Virus record (IMG/VR): IMGVR_UViG_3300046791_000665
Strand: one strand, 5' to 3'
Length of the DNA stretch: 64,000 nucleotides
DNA from: an uncultured virus (IMG/VR IMGVR_UViG_3300046791_000665)
Lineage: Duplodnaviria > Heunggongvirae > Uroviricota > Caudoviricetes
Shown in pieces: positions 19,819 to 61,232 of this stretch. The notes beneath the pieces were generated by a model that saw only the letters and a list, made by a program, of their open reading frames with translations, made no database searches and was not told the DNA's origin. Made by a program: the position numbers and the translations under genes. How positions within the stretch are numbered: position 1 is the stretch's first letter; the number at the start of each line of letters is the position of its first letter.

Positions 19819-21833
19819 GTTCTCGCCTCCAATTTGAGCAGTTGATCTTCGGTCACATTGTATGTCCAAGCGTTCGCCTGGAGCGCGGTCGTCATCTCGC
19901 GAGGCACGGGGAGGACGAACTCCCGCTTCGTCGCGCAGCGCACTCGAAGAAATTTCGCGACAATCATCTCGCCTGTCAGACGTCCGCTCCAATCGGACAC
20001 AGGCCAATCGGTCTCGAGCAGGGTACCGATCTCCGGATCCGGATTCTCATCGACGACTCGCGCCTTCAGCGAGTCCAGAATTTTTGCCCACCCGAGAATT
20101 TCGACTACTACGCGCCTCTTTTCTGCGTTGATTGCATTAAAAATGACGTCTCGAATGTCGATAGATTCCGGATTCTCAATCCACGTCTGAGGAACTGCGA
20201 CATTGCGCCAGTGGTATTGAAAGAATCCATCGCGCCAGCGAAACGAAGGACCGTCTGAGGAGTGGGGCAGCGCCGTTCCTTGAAAAGACCACGAATCTTG
20301 CACGCCTCGTGACTCTGTCACCCTTAACTCCAAAGGATGATCAGACACGATGCAAAACTTCTTGCAGAAAAATCGAGGTCCCGCAGCTGCGATCGTCTCG
20401 TAATTTGCCCAGGCTGAAAAATCTACAGGTAGCTTCGCCACGTGACGATAGAACGAAATATTCGCCGCGTCTCCGTGCGTGTTGTAGTCGATTCCAAGCG
20501 ACGCCCCGCAACACCGGATTAAAAATCGCACGACCGGATCATCGACAAAAGTTCCACTATCACGACTACGTGCCGTTTCACTAAGATGTACTGCGATAGG
20601 ATGAACTTTTCCCCTTACTACATCTCGAACACTATTTTCGACGTCCGTGGGCGTGTCTTCAAATGTTTTCAGATCAACGCCCTGCACGATAGCGTCGTTG
20701 ATCAGGCTTTTCGTTCTTGCAAAAAGCTCTTCGACAATCGTCGTTCGACAAGTTGCTTCTGCGAGAGCGTCAGCCGCAATCGCACGACTATCTTTCTCCA
20801 GAGCGTGATCTCGAGCAATGGCGAGTATCCCCACGACCTCCGCGGGATCATTCGGCGTTTTCGAGTGCTCCTTGAGTTCTGTAACAACGTATCTATCCGC
20901 TGCCGTCGGACTGCCAGTTACGGCAGCGGTCTTAGCGTAACCTGCAGATTCGCTCTCGAACCAACGAAGTGGGCGCTCAGCTGGAACAGGATCGCTGCGA
21001 ATCGCATCGTCTATCGCGGCAGAGATAGTGCGCCGCGCGAGCGCGGGTGACCCGTCGCGAAATGCTTCCGCAATCGCTTTAGAAACAGCGACACCGATCA
21101 CAGCCGCGCGCGCGTAAAGTGCATCGAGATCAGGAGAGCCGTCCGGTGCGAGAGCCGAAGCGATCGCTCGATCCGATGCGACAATCGTTGCTGCGGCTGC
21201 AGCCGCCTCGATCGCCACCTTATTCGCCGCAACCGTTGCCCCAATAATCGACACTTCGACCGCCCGCGTCAGCGCGCGAATGACGATCGCCGTCCCTTTG
21301 CTGATCGGAGTGCTGGGCGCAGCAGCCTCGAGCGCGGCCCGCGTCGACGATTCGATCGACACGCGCAGTGCCTCGTCATCGTCAGCGATTTCCTTGCCGC
21401 GCAGATCTGCCTGCACTCGTTTTGCAACGTATCTGCAAGCGCCTGAGATCGCTGCTGTAAGACGTTCTTCATCGATCTCGCAGCCGAGCGCGCTCTGCTG
21501 TATTTCTGGATGATCACGCAAATACCACACGCCCGCCGCCACGCCTGTCGCGATGGCGCCGCTCACTGGACCGTCAGCAAGAACGACATTGACCGGTGGT
21601 GGGAGATAAGAACTCACGTAGAGCCCGCGCACGGCCTCACGAACACCCCCGCGTTCCTCATCGGAAAGCGTCTCGCAGCGCTGCGTGACTGCGACCCAGC
21701 GATCTGCCCACGATTTCGTCTGCGCGAGGTGTTCCGGCGTCAGCTTGTACTTGTCTTCGGACACAGAGGTCTCCTCATCGTCGCTCACCCAGGTATTGCT
21801 ACCGTGACCGCCGAGCCCTACCTCAAGAGCCAT
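19815..21833 (-). CDS. DUF6745-domain protein
   Basis: C-terminal PHSSDGPSFRWRDG..YHWRNVAVP..NAEKRRV..LRVRCAT..FVLPVP. Confidence 0.7.
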   Translation of the reverse strand: MALEVGLGGHGSNTWVSDDEETSVSEDKYKLTPEHLAQTKSWADRWVAVTQRCETLSDEERGGVREAVRGLYVSSYLPPPVNVVLADGPVSGAIATGVAAGVWYLRDHPEIQQSALGCEIDEERLTAAISGACRYVAKRVQADLRGKEIADDDEALRVSIESSTRAALEAAAPSTPISKGTAIVIRALTRAVEVSIIGATVAANKVAIEAAAAAATIVASDRAIASALAPDGSPDLDALYARAAVIGVAVSKAIAEAFRDGSPALARRTISAAIDDAIRSDPVPAERPLRWFESESAGYAKTAAVTGSPTAADRYVVTELKEHSKTPNDPAEVVGILAIARDHALEKDSRAIAADALAEATCRTTIVEELFARTKSLINDAIVQGVDLKTFEDTPTDVENSVRDVVRGKVHPIAVHLSETARSRDSGTFVDDPVVRFLIRCCGASLGIDYNTHGDAANISFYRHVAKLPVDFSAWANYETIAAAGPRFFCKKFCIVSDHPLELRVTESRGVQDSWSFQGTALPHSSDGPSFRWRDGFFQYHWRNVAVPQTWIENPESIDIRDVIFNAINAEKRRVVVEILGWAKILDSLKARVVDENPDPEIGTLLETDWPVSDWSGRLTGEMIVAKFLRVRCATKREFVLPVPREMTTALQANAWTYNVTEDQLLKLEART

Positions 21834-27641: not shown

Positions 27642-30448
27642 AGACACCCCGGGCTCTACCGGCCCGAACAAGCGGTTACCGTACTGCTGCGTTGGAGCCT
27701 CCTCAACCGCACCAGAATGACGCACGCCACGCCGTACTCGCCAAGCTCAGTAAGTGCGACCGCGCGCAGTGCATCATGCCTTGCGGCACCGGCAAGACCT
27801 ACGTCTCGCTCCTCGTCGCACAGGACGGCAAGCACAAAACGGTCGTCGTCTTCGTCCCATCGCTGGCCCTCGTTCGTCAGGTACTCGCCGAGTACCGCGC
27901 GCGCTCTTCGTGGAAGCGGTGGAGTGCGATCGCCGTCTGCTCCGACCCATCTGTTGTTGATGATGGGCTCTACATAGCTCCAGATGAAGTCGGCTGCGTC
28001 GTCACGACCGATTCGAACATCATCAAGACGTTCCTGAGTCAGGACGGTGTACGCGTCGTCTTCTGCACTTACCAGTCGGCGAGTCTCCTCAATGGACTGA
28101 GATTAGAACTCGGGATCTTCGACGAGGCGCACCGTACCGCCGGACGCCAGGGCAAAGCATTTGCCTTCGCGCTCTCCGACAAGAACGTGCAAATCAAGAA
28201 GCGTTTGTTCATGACGGCAACGCCGCGTCATGCAAGAGCGACCGATGACGGCGAAGTGCCTGTATTCTCGATGGACGACGAGAAGCTATATGGGTCAGTC
28301 GCCTACAGGCTTGACTTCCGTAAAGCGATCGATCTCGGGCTCATCTGCGACTACGAGATCATCATCTGTCCTCTGATCGAGGACGTGAACACTGATGGGG
28401 AAAAGGCTGCGCAGGTTGCCCTCCGCAAGGCCATGGTCAACTACGGCGCAAGACGAGCGTTCACGTTCCATAGCACCGTCGAACGCGCTAGGAGCTTCGC
28501 AGAAGATCGCCACGGCGCCATATACGACTACCGTAAGTTCCACATCAACGGCGCGATGTCGACATCTCAACGCGAACCTATGCTATCGCAGATGGTTGCG
28601 CATGGAGGTATCGTCACCAACGTTCGCTGTCTTTCCGAAGGGGTCGACTTCCCGGCTGTCGACGTAGTCGCCTTCATCGACCCGAAACGAAGTGTGATTG
28701 ACATCGTACAGGCAATCGGACGATGTCTACGCAAGGATAGGAACAACGAAAAGAAGAAGAGCTACATCCTCGTTCCTATCTATATACCTAGAAAACTGAC
28801 CGAAGAAGAGTCGATACGAAAAAGCAAATTCGGTCCACTCTACGACGTGCTTCAGGCCATACGAGAACAGGACAAGGTACTTGAGGCTGATCTGAGGCAA
28901 GCGTCCGAACGAGCGATGGTTACGGGTGATACCGGCAATATTGATCGTATCTCGGTCCTTGGCTACAGCGAAGAGACCCTCGACGTCTTGCAGCGCGCAA
29001 TTACGGTACGACTAGTAAAAATTGTATCAGGAATTAAAGCGGCAGACATTAAGAAACAGTTGTTGTTGAAGATGGCGCATCGCGGAGCGTCGAGACCGCA
29101 TTGGAATACTAGAATCGGAATAGCGCTGTCCAGCTACGTAAGCGCTGTGCGAGACTCCTACGACATCTATTTTGATCAAAAAATTCGACGACTAGCGCCA
29201 AACTGGTTCACTAGCAGCGCAGATCTAAACAAGAAGATCTTATTAAAAATGGCGCGTCGCGGTGATTCGAGACCGAATAGTAAGACCAGGATCGGAAATG
29301 CGCTAGTCCATTATACGAATAGACCTACTGACGCTGCCTTTGATCAAGAAATTCGACGACTCGCACCACAATGGTTTGTCAACACCACTAACGAAAACAA
29401 GAAAATACTGTTTAGCGTGGCACACGGTAGACGTCCAAAGCCGCACTATAAAACTAAACTCGGAATAGCACTTAGAGTGTATACAACACCCGGTGGATCA
29501 TTCGACAAATTTTTCAATAAAAAAATTAGACATCTTGCACCGCACTGGTTCACTAGCAGCGCAGATCGAAACAAGAAGATCTTGTTAGAAATGGCACGAC
29601 GCAGTGCCTCGAGACCGTTGAGTAATACCAAAATCGGAAATGTGCTACTCAAGTATACAGGCAGTAAGTTTAAGCTTTCCGGCACTGGCTTTGACCAAGA
29701 GATTCGACGACTCGCACCACAGTGGTTTATCGATACTGTCGACGAGAACAAGAACATCTTACTGGAGATGGCACGACGCGGTAATGCGAGACCGAAAGAA
29801 AGAACCGAATTAGGATCAAAATTACAAAGATACTCAAGTCCGAATAGCCGTTCTTATGACGACGCTTTCGACGAAGAAGTTCGACACCTTGCACCGCACT
29901 GGTTCATTAACAGCGCAGATCAAAACAAGAAGATCTTATTGGAGATGGCACGTCGGGGAGAGCCAAAACCTCTAGGCAGAAAAAACAAAGCATCAGCGCT
30001 TAACGACTACACTTCTGAAACGAGATCATTCGACACAGTTTTCAATCGAAAAATTCGACGTATTGCACCGCACTGGTTCATTAACAGCGCAGATCAAAAC
30101 AAGAAGATCTTATTGGAGATGGCACGTCGGGGAGAGCCAAAACCTCTAGGCAGAAAAAACAAAACAGCATCGGCTCTTAGAGACTACACTTCTGAAACGA
30201 GATCATTCGACACAGTTTTCAATCGAAAAATTCGACGTATTACACCGCACTGGTTCATTAACAGCGTCGATCAAAACAAGAAAATCTTATTGGATATGGC
30301 ACGTCGGGGAGATCCAAAGCCGTATTATACGACCAAAATCGGAAACGCACTAAAGCGCTATATAAACAACAATAAAAGCAGCACTTACAGCTACGACGCG
30401 ATTTTTAGGCAAAAAATCCTACGACTCGCGCCTCATTGGTTGAAATAG
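27638..30448 (+). CDS. SF2 DEAD/DEAH-box helicase with 8 C-terminal ~58-aa repeats
   Basis: PCGTGKT, DEAH, TATPR, LSEGVD, QAIGRCLR. Confidence 0.9.
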   Translation: MKTPRALPARTSGYRTAALEPPQPHQNDARHAVLAKLSKCDRAQCIMPCGTGKTYVSLLVAQDGKHKTVVVFVPSLALVRQVLAEYRARSSWKRWSAIAVCSDPSVVDDGLYIAPDEVGCVVTTDSNIIKTFLSQDGVRVVFCTYQSASLLNGLRLELGIFDEAHRTAGRQGKAFAFALSDKNVQIKKRLFMTATPRHARATDDGEVPVFSMDDEKLYGSVAYRLDFRKAIDLGLICDYEIIICPLIEDVNTDGEKAAQVALRKAMVNYGARRAFTFHSTVERARSFAEDRHGAIYDYRKFHINGAMSTSQREPMLSQMVAHGGIVTNVRCLSEGVDFPAVDVVAFIDPKRSVIDIVQAIGRCLRKDRNNEKKKSYILVPIYIPRKLTEEESIRKSKFGPLYDVLQAIREQDKVLEADLRQASERAMVTGDTGNIDRISVLGYSEETLDVLQRAITVRLVKIVSGIKAADIKKQLLLKMAHRGASRPHWNTRIGIALSSYVSAVRDSYDIYFDQKIRRLAPNWFTSSADLNKKILLKMARRGDSRPNSKTRIGNALVHYTNRPTDAAFDQEIRRLAPQWFVNTTNENKKILFSVAHGRRPKPHYKTKLGIALRVYTTPGGSFDKFFNKKIRHLAPHWFTSSADRNKKILLEMARRSASRPLSNTKIGNVLLKYTGSKFKLSGTGFDQEIRRLAPQWFIDTVDENKNILLEMARRGNARPKERTELGSKLQRYSSPNSRSYDDAFDEEVRHLAPHWFINSADQNKKILLEMARRGEPKPLGRKNKASALNDYTSETRSFDTVFNRKIRRIAPHWFINSADQNKKILLEMARRGEPKPLGRKNKTASALRDYTSETRSFDTVFNRKIRRITPHWFINSVDQNKKILLDMARRGDPKPYYTTKIGNALKRYINNNKSSTYSYDAIFRQKILRLAPHWLK
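29051..30445 (+). repeat. 8 tandem in-frame ~174-bp repeats
   Basis: NKKILLEMARRG..P...T.IG.AL..Y...FD..IRRLAPHWF units; the copies at ~29891 and ~30065 are nearly identical in DNA. Confidence 0.9.
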
Positions 30449-54865: not shown

Positions 54866-54935
54866 GATGGACCTCCGTTTGACAGGAGGTCCGCCTACGG
54901 TGGTCTGGTCGTGCTCCTCATGATCATCTCCTCAG

Positions 54936-55265
54936 TGGACTCGGAGGGAGTCGAACCCTCGTCTGGCGGTGCGTTCAAAAAACGTCTACGCGCGTGTCCG
55001 GTTTACGTCCGGCATCGTTACATCAACTACGAGGGGACCAGGAGAGATCTACTTCTGCAGCGTCTCCGTCGCTGCTCGCCGGTTTATTTTCCCAGGATCT
55101 CCGGCTCCCGGCCCGATCGTGCTGCAGCTAGGCTGCTGCACGGAGGGGCGAAGCGAACGCGTTGTCGTTGGCTTTTGTTGTTTTCCCGTCGGATTTACGA
55201 GGTGTCGAGAACCCTCGGCGCGCTACTTTTTGTTCGTTCACCTCCATCGAAACCGGTACGAGCCC
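54936..55265 (-). ncRNA. ssrA: tmRNA (transfer-messenger RNA)
   Basis: 5' GGGCTCG pairs with 3' CGAGTCC-A including the G3-U wobble; T-arm GAGGGTTCGACTCCCTC; tag frame ANDNAFASPLRAAA-stop at 55172-55128. Confidence 0.93.
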
Positions 55266-55532
55266 GTAAGACCAACATGCTACCAAATCTTTCTTCTTGA
55301 AGTCCAGCACAAAACGATCTAGTCTCCGCCCCCATCATGAGCCACCGAGAGCAGCAGCGCCAGCGCCTGATCGACCGCCGCTACGAGACCGCCGCCCGCC
55401 CCCGCCAAGAATCGGGCGAGGGCACGCGCGGGCGCGTCGGACCGGGGGCAGGTGCGCGCTCGAACGTTCCAACACCGCTCGCGGCACGCGATCCGCGCCT
55501 GCCGCTCAAATCGATCCAGATCTGGTAAAAAC

Positions 55533-55767
55533 CCGGGGACGGGTTCAACTGCAAGAGGAAGGAGTAGCAGGTTGGCGTGCTAAGTGCTCGTCCTCTAGGG
55601 GACTCGCTCAGGGCTCGCTGCTCGGTGCTCCGCGCTATCGATCTGACCGCTGAACGCTCTGGTGCCGGTGTCTTTTTGCCCGTAAGGGCGTTCAATGATC
55701 GACGATTGACGTCGGTCGGTATTGCCTACCTCGCCTCTCCGCTCTCGCTCATCTCCCCCGTCCCCGG
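55533..55767 (-). ncRNA. putative structured ncRNA with long closing stem and 7-nt periodic AGC motifs
   Basis: 11-bp perfect inverted repeat (55533-43/55757-67) extends into an imperfect stem; GCT every 7 nt on + strand. Confidence 0.6.
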
Positions 55768-55772
55768 AAAAC

Positions 55773-56279
55773 CTACAGCCCGACGCTCGTCCGGTGGTTC
55801 GCACTCTCGACGAGATCGTTCAGGTCATCGAACTTCTTCTGCACCTCGGCGACGGACTGCGCGCGCCGCGCCTCCGGCAAGTGGCAGCGAAACAGGCGCT
55901 CGACTGCGGCGTACTTGTTACCCCCGTCGACCGTGATGTACTCGTTGGTGCGATCGGCCGTCACCTCCTGCGGGCGCACGGCGAGTCCGCGGAGCCACGC
56001 GATCCGCCCCTTGAACTCCTGGAGCCAAACCGTCGCCTCAGCGAGGGTGATGCTGCGACCCTCGTAGTCGACCTTCGTCTGCGCGTTGGCGATCCGCAGC
56101 GCGGCCTCGAGCCGGATCAACTCTTGACGCTTGCCGTCCGCCTCTTCGAGGCAGGTGCCAAAGGAGAAGGCCGGGGGCTGCTTCTCCTCGTGCGTCACCG
56201 AGCCGGCAGCGCGCTCGAGCGACTCCTTGTACTCCCCCTTCAACTTCGCGATGCGACGGAGGGTCTGTGCAATGGTCAT
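55773..56279 (-). CDS. DIP1984/DUF6847-like coiled-coil protein
   Basis: MTIAQTLR..LIRLEAALRIANAQT..ITLAEA..LNDLVESANHRT. Confidence 0.7.
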   Translation of the reverse strand: MTIAQTLRRIAKLKGEYKESLERAAGSVTHEEKQPPAFSFGTCLEEADGKRQELIRLEAALRIANAQTKVDYEGRSITLAEATVWLQEFKGRIAWLRGLAVRPQEVTADRTNEYITVDGGNKYAAVERLFRCHLPEARRAQSVAEVQKKFDDLNDLVESANHRTSVGL

Positions 56280-60224: not shown

Positions 60225-61232
60225 GCGACGGTTCTACCCCATTTGAGCCCTGCCTGAGCAGCGCGACGACCCTCAGCCCGCACTCTCGGAACGACCCGTC
60301 GCGACGCGTCATTCCCGCACTATTCACAGCGACACACCTAGCAGAGTCGGGCGCTGCCTCACCGCCCCGCACCAGAGCGACGCTGCTCTCCAAGCATGGC
60401 CATCTCCAGGCGACGGCCCTACCTAGCTCTCGACCTGTCCTGGACTGAGCGACGAGACGAGTCCGTCGATCGCAATCCGTTGCGACAAGACGATCCAACC
60501 CGTTTCACGTCCAGCCACGGGTCCGTCTCAACGTGACACGTCGAGCATGGTCCAGCCGCCGCGACGAGCGCAGCCAGTCCTGACTCACCTCTCCCGCCGC
60601 CAGCGCGACAGTCCATCGCTATGCTGTCCGGCGCGACGATTCAGCACAGGTCGGGTTCCAGCCCGTACCGGCGCGACGCTTCATCCCAGGACAAGTCGGG
60701 ACTAGTCGGCGCGACGGTTCTTGCCGCGCGAGACCAATAACCGTACCGACCCGCAGCGACGAGCCGTTCCCTCCCTGTCTCACGTCGCTCCACAGCCGCA
60801 GCGACAAGCAAGGACAAACCGATTCCAGTCTCCGCGACATGCCCGCGCATTCGCAAGCCAACGTGACTTTTCATCCCAACTCCGCCCGCAGCCAAGTCCT
60901 CGCGACGTTGCACGTCTATCGAGGCCATTCCCCGTCGGGCCAACGCGACTACCCCACCCGACCTCCCGCGATCCCGATCGCCGCGACTTGTCAAGCCGAC
61001 CCCTGCGCGACCCAGCGCGACATGCCATCGCGATTCAAGATCGCCGCGATCCGCAGCGACATGCCCACCCGTTCCAGCCGCCGCGACGAGCCCGTTCGTA
61101 CCGTACGCGCGCCCCATTCAGTGCGACTATTCTCCCCACACCATCTCATTTCCGTCCGCCGCGACTACCCGTGACGTACCGTTACGGCTCCGCGCGACAT
61201 GCCCAGCCACCACCGATCATAACGACCGCGAC
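60225..61232 (+). repeat. non-coding array of ~27 units GCGAC+(NNNNC)n+NNN; candidate guide-RNA array
   Basis: 28 GYGAC anchors spaced 27-51 nt, mostly 28/33/38/43/48; C at every 5th position. Confidence 0.85.

Follow-up and report, generated by a model that had tools for sequence, protein, structure and literature searches.

In the current work, a 64-kb stretch of DNA from an uncultured phage (IMG/VR record IMGVR_UViG_3300046791_000665; referred to as "the window", meaning this stretch at its full length) was analyzed with respect to the gene of a 168-amino acid (aa) DIP1984-like protein and a structured RNA that begins directly 3' to it, both being located on the minus strand. This RNA carries a tract of AGC triplets recurring with a period of 7 nucleotides (nt), and is tightly and widely coupled to the DIP1984-like gene of this particular protein branch: downstream of every homologue with enough flanking sequence (28 loci), a long-range stem was found which encloses hairpins and an AGC heptad tract. 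The gene and the RNA represent a conserved two-part module, present mainly in uncultured and often very large phages, in which the gene and then the RNA would be carried on one transcript.

The heptad RNA and its coupling to the gene

The structured RNA occupies positions 55533-55767 of the window (minus strand, ≈235 nt) and starts 5 nt past the stop codon of the 168-aa gene. The elements of the gene and of the RNA are as follows.

55773-56279, minus strand: gene of the 168-aa protein with the 3KDQ/DIP1984 fold (open reading frame (ORF), AlphaFold2, Foldseek and VIA-align)
55775-55773, minus strand: stop codon TAG of this gene (sequence)
55757-55768, minus strand: 5' arm of the closing stem P1, U + CCGGGGACGGG, starting 4-5 nt past the stop codon
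55659-55756, minus strand: 5' domain, consisting of nested helices (GCGAGAG, GGAG, AGGU.GGC) and small hairpins (minimum-energy fold)
55642-55658, minus strand: heptad block 1, AGC-N4-AGC-N4-AGA (units 1-3; AGC 55658, AGC 55651, AGA 55644)
55579-55636, minus strand: heptad block 2, seven AGC units (units 4-10; 55636, 55629, 55622, 55615, 55608, 55588, 55581)
55589-55605, minus strand: 17-nt spacer between units 8 and 9, with a small hairpin GUCC...GGAC (the usual spacer being 4 nt)
55532-55543, minus strand: 3' arm of P1, CCCGUCCCCGG + G (sequence and minimum-energy fold)
55531-55527, minus strand: U-run (TTTTT) directly 3' of P1 (sequence)

The two ends of the RNA are held together by P1, in which CCGGGGACGGG (55767-55757) pairs with CCCGTCCCCGG (55543-55533), generating 12 base pairs (bp) when one U-G pair is counted; a terminal stem of equal length was obtained in 1 of 200 dinucleotide shuffles. 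The fold of a 251-nt stretch amounts to -105.1 kcal/mol as compared to a shuffle mean of -82.7 (z -4.6), with none of 200 shuffles being as stable. The start of the RNA 5 nt past the stop codon, its paired ends and the U-run lie exactly where an earlier reading of the window by a model, based on the letters alone (here named the original prediction), had placed them, and all of the inner helices named in that prediction (GCGAGAG/CTCTTGC, GGAG/CTCC and AGGU..GGC/GCC..ACCU) are contained in the minimum-energy fold. The 5' domain terminates in the box CACCGGCACC, immediately ahead of the heptad tract, and a corresponding box (CAYCGRYACC / CCGAUAC) again precedes the tract in the homologous loci L003, L004, L011 and L017 and in group B.

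The tract in the window comprises ten heptad positions (3 + 7), being nine AGC and one AGA, in the order AGC, AGC, AGA, a 5-nt linker, five AGC, the 17-nt hairpin spacer and two AGC, the minus-strand triplets coinciding with the plus-strand GCT positions from which the original prediction had read the tract. It represents the sole signal at a lag of 7 among the 25 strongest short-period signals of the window, the others having lags of 5, 6, 9, 10, 12 and 15, which are mostly multiples of three, as from coding repeats. A scan of the window for terminators made no call at P1 and the U-run, because the enclosed loop is far above the limit of the scan, and no promoter-like site was found in the window between 54800 and 56800.

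No Rfam family corresponding to this RNA was found. A match to a known family such as 6S RNA, which the original prediction had named as counting against it, was not obtained: at the gathering score of Rfam 15 the sole match in the whole window is a transfer-messenger RNA (tmRNA) at 54933-55265, with nothing for the heptad RNA (6S RNA included), while a scan of 55300-56000 returned zero matches even at E<=10. Across 17 related loci, Rfam recovered tRNA, RNase P RNA and two sub-threshold matches in the tRNA cluster of L218, none of these being positioned in the RNA. A search of the literature (supplements aside), including on heptanucleotide repeats, phage noncoding RNA and the RNase P RNA and tmRNA of huge phages, turned up no account of this element.

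Homologous loci were collected by a scan of IMG/VR with alignment A1 (24 loci, three of which end at the gene), by a scan of GTDB with a narrower alignment (three loci), and subsequently by a scan of 401 genomes of the phylum thereby identified (two more loci, with the gene being present in 3 of the 401); single-protein searches for further loci matched only the known L003 contig. Within the 500 nt downstream of the gene, one to six AGC-AGC pairs spaced 7 nt apart were counted in 28/28 loci with flank (at least two in 26/28), as compared to zero or one such pair in the gene bodies and zero or one in the upstream flanks (31/31 in each case). The 28 loci include exact duplicates (L006, L008 and L010 being identical to L005, L012 to L011, L019 to L018, and L025 to L003), and the comparisons below were made on 16 distinct RNAs from the viral loci and the window, the near-identical L002 being left out. 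The coupling, and with it the 7-nt register that the original prediction had proposed, is conserved down to 36-37% identity with the window protein and over a GC content of 31% to 68% in the measured loci or records, these being viral contigs and five small bacterial genomes, the loci of the latter showing 41-42% protein identity to L013. The module protein measures 165-175 aa and the module RNA 205-310 nt, and the heptad tract is the single top cluster of its kind (AGC at lag 7) both in the window and in three whole phage records. When two family members were compared by tblastn to 50,697 GenBank phage records, no match was obtained at E<=1e-3.

The units of the tract can be aligned across all lineages with the consensus nnUnAGC, the most conserved stretch of the RNA being block 1 (AGCnnUYAGCnnUYAKA). 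The original observation that the 4 nt between motifs vary was refined in that the triplet and the U two bases before it are retained, with the other spacer bases being variable. Manual reading of the 16 RNAs gave ten units (3 + 7) in 12 of them, the count being 9-10 in L004, L015, L020 and L022 due to an insertion or an out-of-register unit. Each RNA contains one or two degenerate positions (AGU, AAG, AAA or ACC), located differently between lineages, and the linker following unit 3 ranges from 5 to 10 nt. Spacers in the window, L015, L016, L020 and L022 are interrupted by insertions which carry hairpins and measure 13-35 nt (in most cases no multiple of 7), at sites which differ among these five RNAs and with the register being kept. 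Block 1 and block 2 are both situated 5' to the 3' strands of the closing helices, immediately ahead of them, and RNAalifold detected no conserved pairing inside the tract apart from 2-bp artefacts. As judged from these sequence comparisons, the tract behaves like a putative protein-binding array.

The closing stems are of unrelated sequence between lineages and are nevertheless always paired (CCGGGGACGGG, CGGGAAGAGGGGCGG, a 23-bp stem in L003, UAGGGUACG and UAGAAUACGC), with lengths of 7-23 bp. For 12 of the 16 RNAs an equally long terminal stem was obtained in at most 3 of 200 shuffles, the weakest cases being L022, L023, L018 and L011. The sense closing stems hold 14 G-U pairs, and the stem score of the sense strand exceeds that of the antisense strand in 10/16 RNAs, is equal in two and lower in four. 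Covariation was assessed in the nine low-GC RNAs (alignment A5), where four helices with 27 pairs are paired in 89.4% of cells, as compared to at most 53.5% in slid controls, and where 12 pairs are changed on both sides, the observed values being reached by none or one of 500 column shuffles. Hairpins are capped by GNRA and UUCG loops. In most of the low-GC RNAs (L013-L022, first 50 nt; e.g. L015 3526-3550), the 5' arm GUACG also pairs with an adjacent CGUAC, which represents a neighbouring copy of the P1 3' arm, thus generating a local hairpin with a GNRA-like loop; this hairpin possibly represents an alternative fold competing with the long-range stem.

The DIP1984-like protein

The window protein is a member of a large, divergent and mostly viral branch of the DUF6847/DIP1984 superfamily, an assignment that follows from sub-threshold family scores combined with its fold and with the relatives retrieved by profile search. 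It scores 16.7 bits against Pfam DUF6847 (PF20935) and 19.6 bits against NCBIfam DIP1984_fam (NF038048), thus below the curated cut-offs of 27 and 70, respectively. Its AlphaFold2 model, derived from a 22-sequence alignment (A2), has a predicted local distance difference test score (pLDDT) of 96.3 and consists of four helices and two beta-hairpins; the "DIP1984-like coiled-coil" of the original prediction is accordingly apt in its first term and loose in its second. The only strong structural match of the model is PDB 3KDQ, a Corynebacterium diphtheriae protein of unknown function: 3KDQ is the best match by Foldseek (template modelling (TM) score 0.67-0.81, E 8.3e-4) and, in a VIA-align comparison against ≈48,000 chains, gives Z 14.6 and a root mean square deviation of 3.2 Å with 149 of 152 residues aligned, the next rows (Z <=9.6) being helical hairpins that cover residues 1-69 only. 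Neighbours in the ESM Atlas are viral clusters together with clusters named DIP1984 family or DUF6847.

A profile search of 1.84 billion representatives recovered 549 at E<=1e-3, of which 186 also at E<=1e-30, the length being 160-190 aa in almost every case. When 57 relatives were scanned, 44 matched DUF6847 at E<=1e-3 and 24 reached the 27-bit cut-off. No PHROGs family was assigned to the window protein nor to 10 of 11 neighbouring ORFs, a sequence search of the PDB with the family profile gave no match at E<=1, and nothing relevant on DUF6847, DIP1984 or 3KDQ was retrieved from the literature (supplements aside). HutP, an RNA-binding regulator to which we return below, is not among the Pfam matches of the window protein at E<=0.01, and no HutP fold was found among the strong structural matches. 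Two types of candidate were discarded in the course of this survey: apparent fusions in a few long homologues, the N-terminal extensions of which look like miscalled starts, and two weak DUF6847 matches in small genomes, which on reading of the sequence look like GreA transcription factors.

The original prediction had supposed an oligomeric or filament-forming protein. Complex prediction for the window protein paired with itself gave a score of 0.75, the best control reaching 0.07; in the calibration of this score, 20 of 30 proteins solved as one-chain pairs attained the mark, as compared to 1 of 23 whose structures are of single chains. Agreement between the runs amounted to at least 91% of contacts, with a partner pLDDT of at least 89 and a two-fold symmetric interface. 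In contrast to the calibration, this job used four copies and a custom alignment, and the predictor may have passed by having memorised the solved relative 3KDQ. Self-association is thus favoured by the model, and the filament is not, the predicted interface being that of a two-fold dimer. The invariant polar residues, which cluster towards the N-terminal (Q5, R8, K14, R23) and C-terminal (E136, R139, N154, E158 and N161) ends of the chain, are all located outside the listed interface residues, and would therefore be free for another ligand.

Genomic company, carriers and distant homologues

No protein-coding neighbour conserved across all loci was found; the recurrent neighbours of the module are genes of stable RNAs, which were located as follows.

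Window 54933-55265, minus strand: tmRNA (Rfam RF00023, 106.7 bits; ARAGORN agrees), 261 nt downstream of the U-run
L013 3805-4144: RNase P RNA (Rfam)
L014 3801-4291: RNase P RNA (Rfam)
L015 4222-4565: RNase P RNA (Rfam)
L016 3980-4343: RNase P RNA (Rfam)
L018 3803-4132: RNase P RNA (Rfam)
L020 3914-4275: RNase P RNA (Rfam)
L022 3973-4473: RNase P RNA (Rfam)
L024 1852-2334: RNase P RNA (Rfam)

According to ARAGORN, the window tmRNA specifies the tag ANDNAFASPLRAAA, and the 41%-GC relative G003 contains a tmRNA with a similar tag, ANDNAFAPLALAA. Downstream of the heptad RNA, a full-length bacterial class-A RNase P RNA (251-308 bits) is present in eight of the nine low-GC loci, beginning 15-340 nt after the closing stem and, in five of these eight, within 25 nt of it; among whole records it was found in G002-G004, and not in G001 or G411. 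Clusters of tRNA genes lie at a distance of up to 3 kb in seven of the nine low-GC loci, as well as in L001, L003, L005 and L008, and in the low-GC group the module is preceded by an HNH endonuclease gene, the RNase P RNA in turn being followed by an RNA ligase gene.

The carrier records measure 353 kb (79% estimated completeness), 268 kb (62%), 153 kb (35%) and 130 kb (30%), and two carrier records contain 32 and 39 tRNA genes. In these two low-GC records a suppressor-type tRNA with anticodon CUA was noted (G003 104550-104624, with 32 tRNA genes; G004 20602-20693, with 39), which hints at reassignment of TAG. That the module is not tied to RNase P RNA is evident from a complete phage of 74 kb with terminal repeats, which contains the module and a single tRNA but lacks RNase P RNA. 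Of the five small bacterial genomes (≈1-1.4 Mb) that carry the module, two are recorded as Patescibacteria, and in one the module adjoins a glycosyltransferase gene and a TrmB regulator gene.

Beyond this branch, the downstream region of more distant homologues was inspected. The 595-kb uncultured phage LR756511.1 encodes a homologue (hhalign 94.3%, E 1e-7 against A2), after which come a tiny lysine-rich ORF and then an RNA closed by a stem; this RNA contains a hairpin with a UUCG cap as well as six UUAAA(A)G repeats of 6-7 nt. A relative of this homologue with 31.5% identity, in the 462-kb phage LR756500.1, likewise precedes a stem-closed RNA, which ends in a U-run and contains A-rich repeats of 7-8 nt, in a genome so AT-rich that chance is a plausible origin of these repeats. 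As a weaker candidate (hhalign 43.9%), gene Blue_209 of Bacillus phage Deep Blue (NC_031056.1; L218 1471-2103), annotated as "tail fiber protein", is located directly after 12 tRNA genes and before a 430-nt unannotated gap (L218 2104-2560). This 430-nt region, for which Rfam returned no match, is conserved in phage Thurquoise with compensatory hairpin changes, ends in a terminator and contains CAAAG motifs at intervals of 14-22 nt, of which Deep Blue has five and Thurquoise four. Downstream of a canonical DUF6847 gene in a small bacterial genome (L190; G336, contig C12), a 19-bp long-range stem encloses ≈175 nt, with no heptad periodicity. These cases, although few, fit the notion that a different motif goes with a different protein branch.

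Heptad arrays of other kinds were encountered when viral contigs were scanned for a pattern of five AGC units, which returned at least 153 loci; among the matches listed, neither the gene nor any known module locus was present, the known loci not having been reached. Arrays of five to nine (NN)CAAGC heptads leading into promoters resembling TTGACA-N17-TATAAT or TTGACA-N17-TATAAG were noted in L032, L035, L041, L049, L053, L055, L057, L059, L074, L086 and L090, none of these listed loci having a DUF6847 gene nearby, and from their sequence they look like heptad operators or upstream elements acting at the DNA level. Inverted heptad arrays, in which UUAGCNN repeats, a loop and NNGCUAA repeats form long hairpins, were seen in L037, L038, L040, L063, L076 and L083. 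Elsewhere in the window, degenerate direct repeats with a GCGCGACG-like core occur at 60297-61203 (spacing ≈38-40 nt and larger steps) and perhaps represent the RAMP array to which the original prediction refers, and a 177-nt unit repeated in tandem (2.4 copies with 94% matches) occupies 29889-30318, the lowest-GC part of the window.

Reading of the heptad tract and comparison with known systems

As the best reading of these data, for which we judge the chances to be slightly better than even, a putative oligomer of the neighbouring protein would read the AG(C) triplets at their 7-nt period, resulting in either a stable particle or a control of read-through. Copies of the protein, as a dimer or as an assembly of dimers, would each recognise one AG(C) triplet, and the tract would wrap a defined oligomer in the manner known for HutP with XAG-N4 repeats and for TRAP with (G/U)AG repeats. 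In one outcome (a), cleavage in the closing stem would free a stable ribonucleoprotein from the transcript of the operon, which would then act in trans as a particle; the company of tRNA, tmRNA and RNase P RNA genes then suggests a role in RNA processing or translation. In the other outcome (b), the tract would function as a HutP-like device, where binding beside the 3' strands of P2 and P1 alters the formation of the closing stem and the U-run, and so governs both read-through into the genes downstream and how stable the mRNA encoding the protein is. The two outcomes are about equally likely. The particle is favoured by the elaborate, conserved 5' domain and by a closing stem similar to the stalks at which stable RNAs are processed, while the switch is favoured because the tract abuts the 3' strands, because a U-run is present in 9/15 RNAs listed, because same-strand genes or RNA genes follow, and because of the alternative pairing of the 5' arm. 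For a guide function, as raised in the original prediction, no support emerged, the spacers being only 4 nt long and matched to no target.

Several observations weigh against this reading. In single-sequence folding the mean pairing probability is 0.57 inside the tract and 0.61 outside, so that the tract is not more open than its surroundings, and among 15 RNAs listed, manual reading found the U-rich run 3' of P1 in only nine. Nor is the protein basic (among 150 representatives the median isoelectric point is 6.64, with 16% above 8), and no known RNA-binding domain was detected in it with Pfam, NCBIfam or PHROGs. Modelling predicts the contact of a dimer, which corresponds to neither a ring nor a filament and is uninformative as to RNA. 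Downstream of two canonical DUF6847 genes (144.7 and 116.2 bits), AGC heptads are missing (0/2), and the coupling is therefore shown only for the present branch. Finally, the gene of L022 (3001-3333; 3306-3640) is cut after approximately residue 105 and runs straight into an intact heptad RNA, as a result of either a natural deletion or an assembly fault.

The neutral charge of the protein, the negative domain searches and the retention of the RNA beside the truncated L022 gene would equally be expected if the RNA were a stand-alone noncoding RNA or a decoy of a host factor, its heptads being read by a host triplet-repeat reader, a ribonuclease or anticodon loops and the gene being merely co-transcribed. 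The location of the module within clusters of stable RNA genes would agree with such an RNA, as would, by reasoning, the complementarity of U-n-A-G-C to anticodon-loop positions 34-36 and 38 ending GCU-N-A; the ideas of an anticodon-loop sponge and of an RNase III processing stalk are speculation. We nevertheless consider a stand-alone RNA rather unlikely, since the adjacency of gene and RNA is kept at 36-37% protein identity with no other neighbour being conserved, a distant protein branch is paired with a different repeat motif, and no host factor is known to read AGC at a 7-nt period, the literature search having supplied none.

Two further explanations place the function, if any, outside a protein-bound RNA. 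The omega repressor of pSM19035 binds operators of 7-10 heptad repeats, which are contiguous and in phase on duplex DNA at a promoter, and the ten units of the tract, the predicted dimer and the (NN)CAAGC arrays ending in TTGACA-N17-TATAAT-like promoters, common among the viral-contig matches listed, could suggest that the heptads similarly act as double-stranded DNA, i.e. as an operator or a centromere-like array bound by dimers. This is very improbable, considering that the tract is enclosed by covarying long-range and local helices with GNRA and UUCG caps, that G-U pairs favour one strand, that the units are always in one orientation, that linkers of 5-10 nt and the 13-35-nt hairpin insertions break the register required for duplex phasing, and that the surroundings in the window are devoid of a promoter-like site. 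Even less credible is a selfish heptamer-repeat element without dedicated function (palindromic heptad arrays or IVS-like cassettes): inverted arrays such as UUAGCNN...NNGCUAA are indeed frequent among the viral-contig matches listed, yet here a single array in direct orientation is confined to one flank of the gene, heptads do not make up the closing stem, there is one copy per genome (as judged from the single top signal in three phage records and the window), and deeply diverged loci retain the position, the number of units and the flanking helices.

If the reading of AG(C) triplets by the neighbouring protein is true, it would provide the first testable function, i.e. sequence-specific reading of single-stranded RNA, for a family with a crystal structure since 2009, the branch concerned comprising at least 549 cluster representatives, and it would represent a third, structurally unrelated way, after TRAP and HutP, of reading triplet repeats with an oligomer. 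The RNA would add a structured family to those in Rfam, its fixed location beside the tRNA, tmRNA, RNase P RNA and RNA ligase genes of phages hints at a connection with RNA processing or translation in large phages, and the combination of a ten-site array with a small, well-folded protein is attractive for structure determination and for the engineering of RNA scaffolds. It is conceivable, though we regard it as doubtful, that DIP1984-fold phage proteins and their downstream RNAs constitute a large co-evolving class of ribonucleoprotein particles, in which each branch would read its own motif at a period of ≈7 nt (AGC here, A-rich in the two megaphages), a fixed number of sites (ten here) would specify a defined assembly, and the particles would act in trans on host or phage RNA processing or translation alongside phage tRNAs, tmRNA and RNase P RNA.

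In terms of known systems, the protein is alike in its whole fold to 3KDQ and the DUF6847/DIP1984 family, and differs in that it scores below both family cut-offs and in that canonical members were found without an AGC heptad RNA. Type III toxin-antitoxin RNAs (ToxI-like) are composed of tandem repeats of ≈34-45 nt ahead of an endoribonuclease toxin gene, whereas the present units measure 7 nt and are located after the gene. The antitoxin-like role suggested in the original prediction likewise gains no support from the protein, for which no toxin family or fold was found (Pfam, NCBIfam, PHROGs, Foldseek and VIA-align; the PADLOC library was not searched), or from the neighbours, which are tRNA, tmRNA, RNase P RNA and RNA ligase genes and not defence genes. 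Sponge RNAs of the CsrB/RsmZ type present repeated GGA motifs in hairpin loops at irregular spacing and are encoded away from the gene of their dimeric protein; common to both is one RNA with many short motifs, the difference being that the array here is linear, in register and fixed beside the gene. In TRAP, the number of triplet repeats equals the number of subunits, the spacers are unread, and the RNA wraps an all-beta ring at a period of 5-6 nt. This ring is stated to have 11 subunits (PMC1474065). The likeness would consist in triplet repeats matched to the subunits of an oligomer, and the difference in the period, which is 5-6 nt in TRAP and 7 nt here.

Among known systems, HutP with the hut terminator RNA of Bacillus subtilis comes closest. 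As described in PMC2425495, each face of the HutP hexamer recognises three XAG motifs separated by 4 nt, the bases read being A and G, and two such sites with a 12-17-nt linker are present in the RNA after hutP, where binding rearranges a stable stem so that transcription can go on. The present module differs in the unrelated fold of its protein (3KDQ), in ten units as opposed to 3 + 3, and in the conservation of the C following AG and of the U two bases upstream. Its RNA is phage-borne, three to five times larger and provided with a hairpin-rich 5' domain, and its binding is putative. Nor is the HutP layout of two three-triplet sites, 12-17 nt apart and flanking a terminator stem, reproduced, the arrangement here being three units, a 5-10-nt linker and seven units. 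In both systems, the gene of the (putative) regulator is directly followed by the target RNA, AG triplets with 4 unconserved spacer bases recur at a 7-nt period (the first nAG(C) unit here lying ≈110 nt past the stop codon), three units in a block precede a linker and additional units, and the sites flank or abut a stable stem before downstream genes; the reading of one triplet by each subunit of an oligomer would be a further likeness. It is from the shared unit, the period, the first block of three and the order of gene and then target that we infer a neighbouring protein which reads AG(C).

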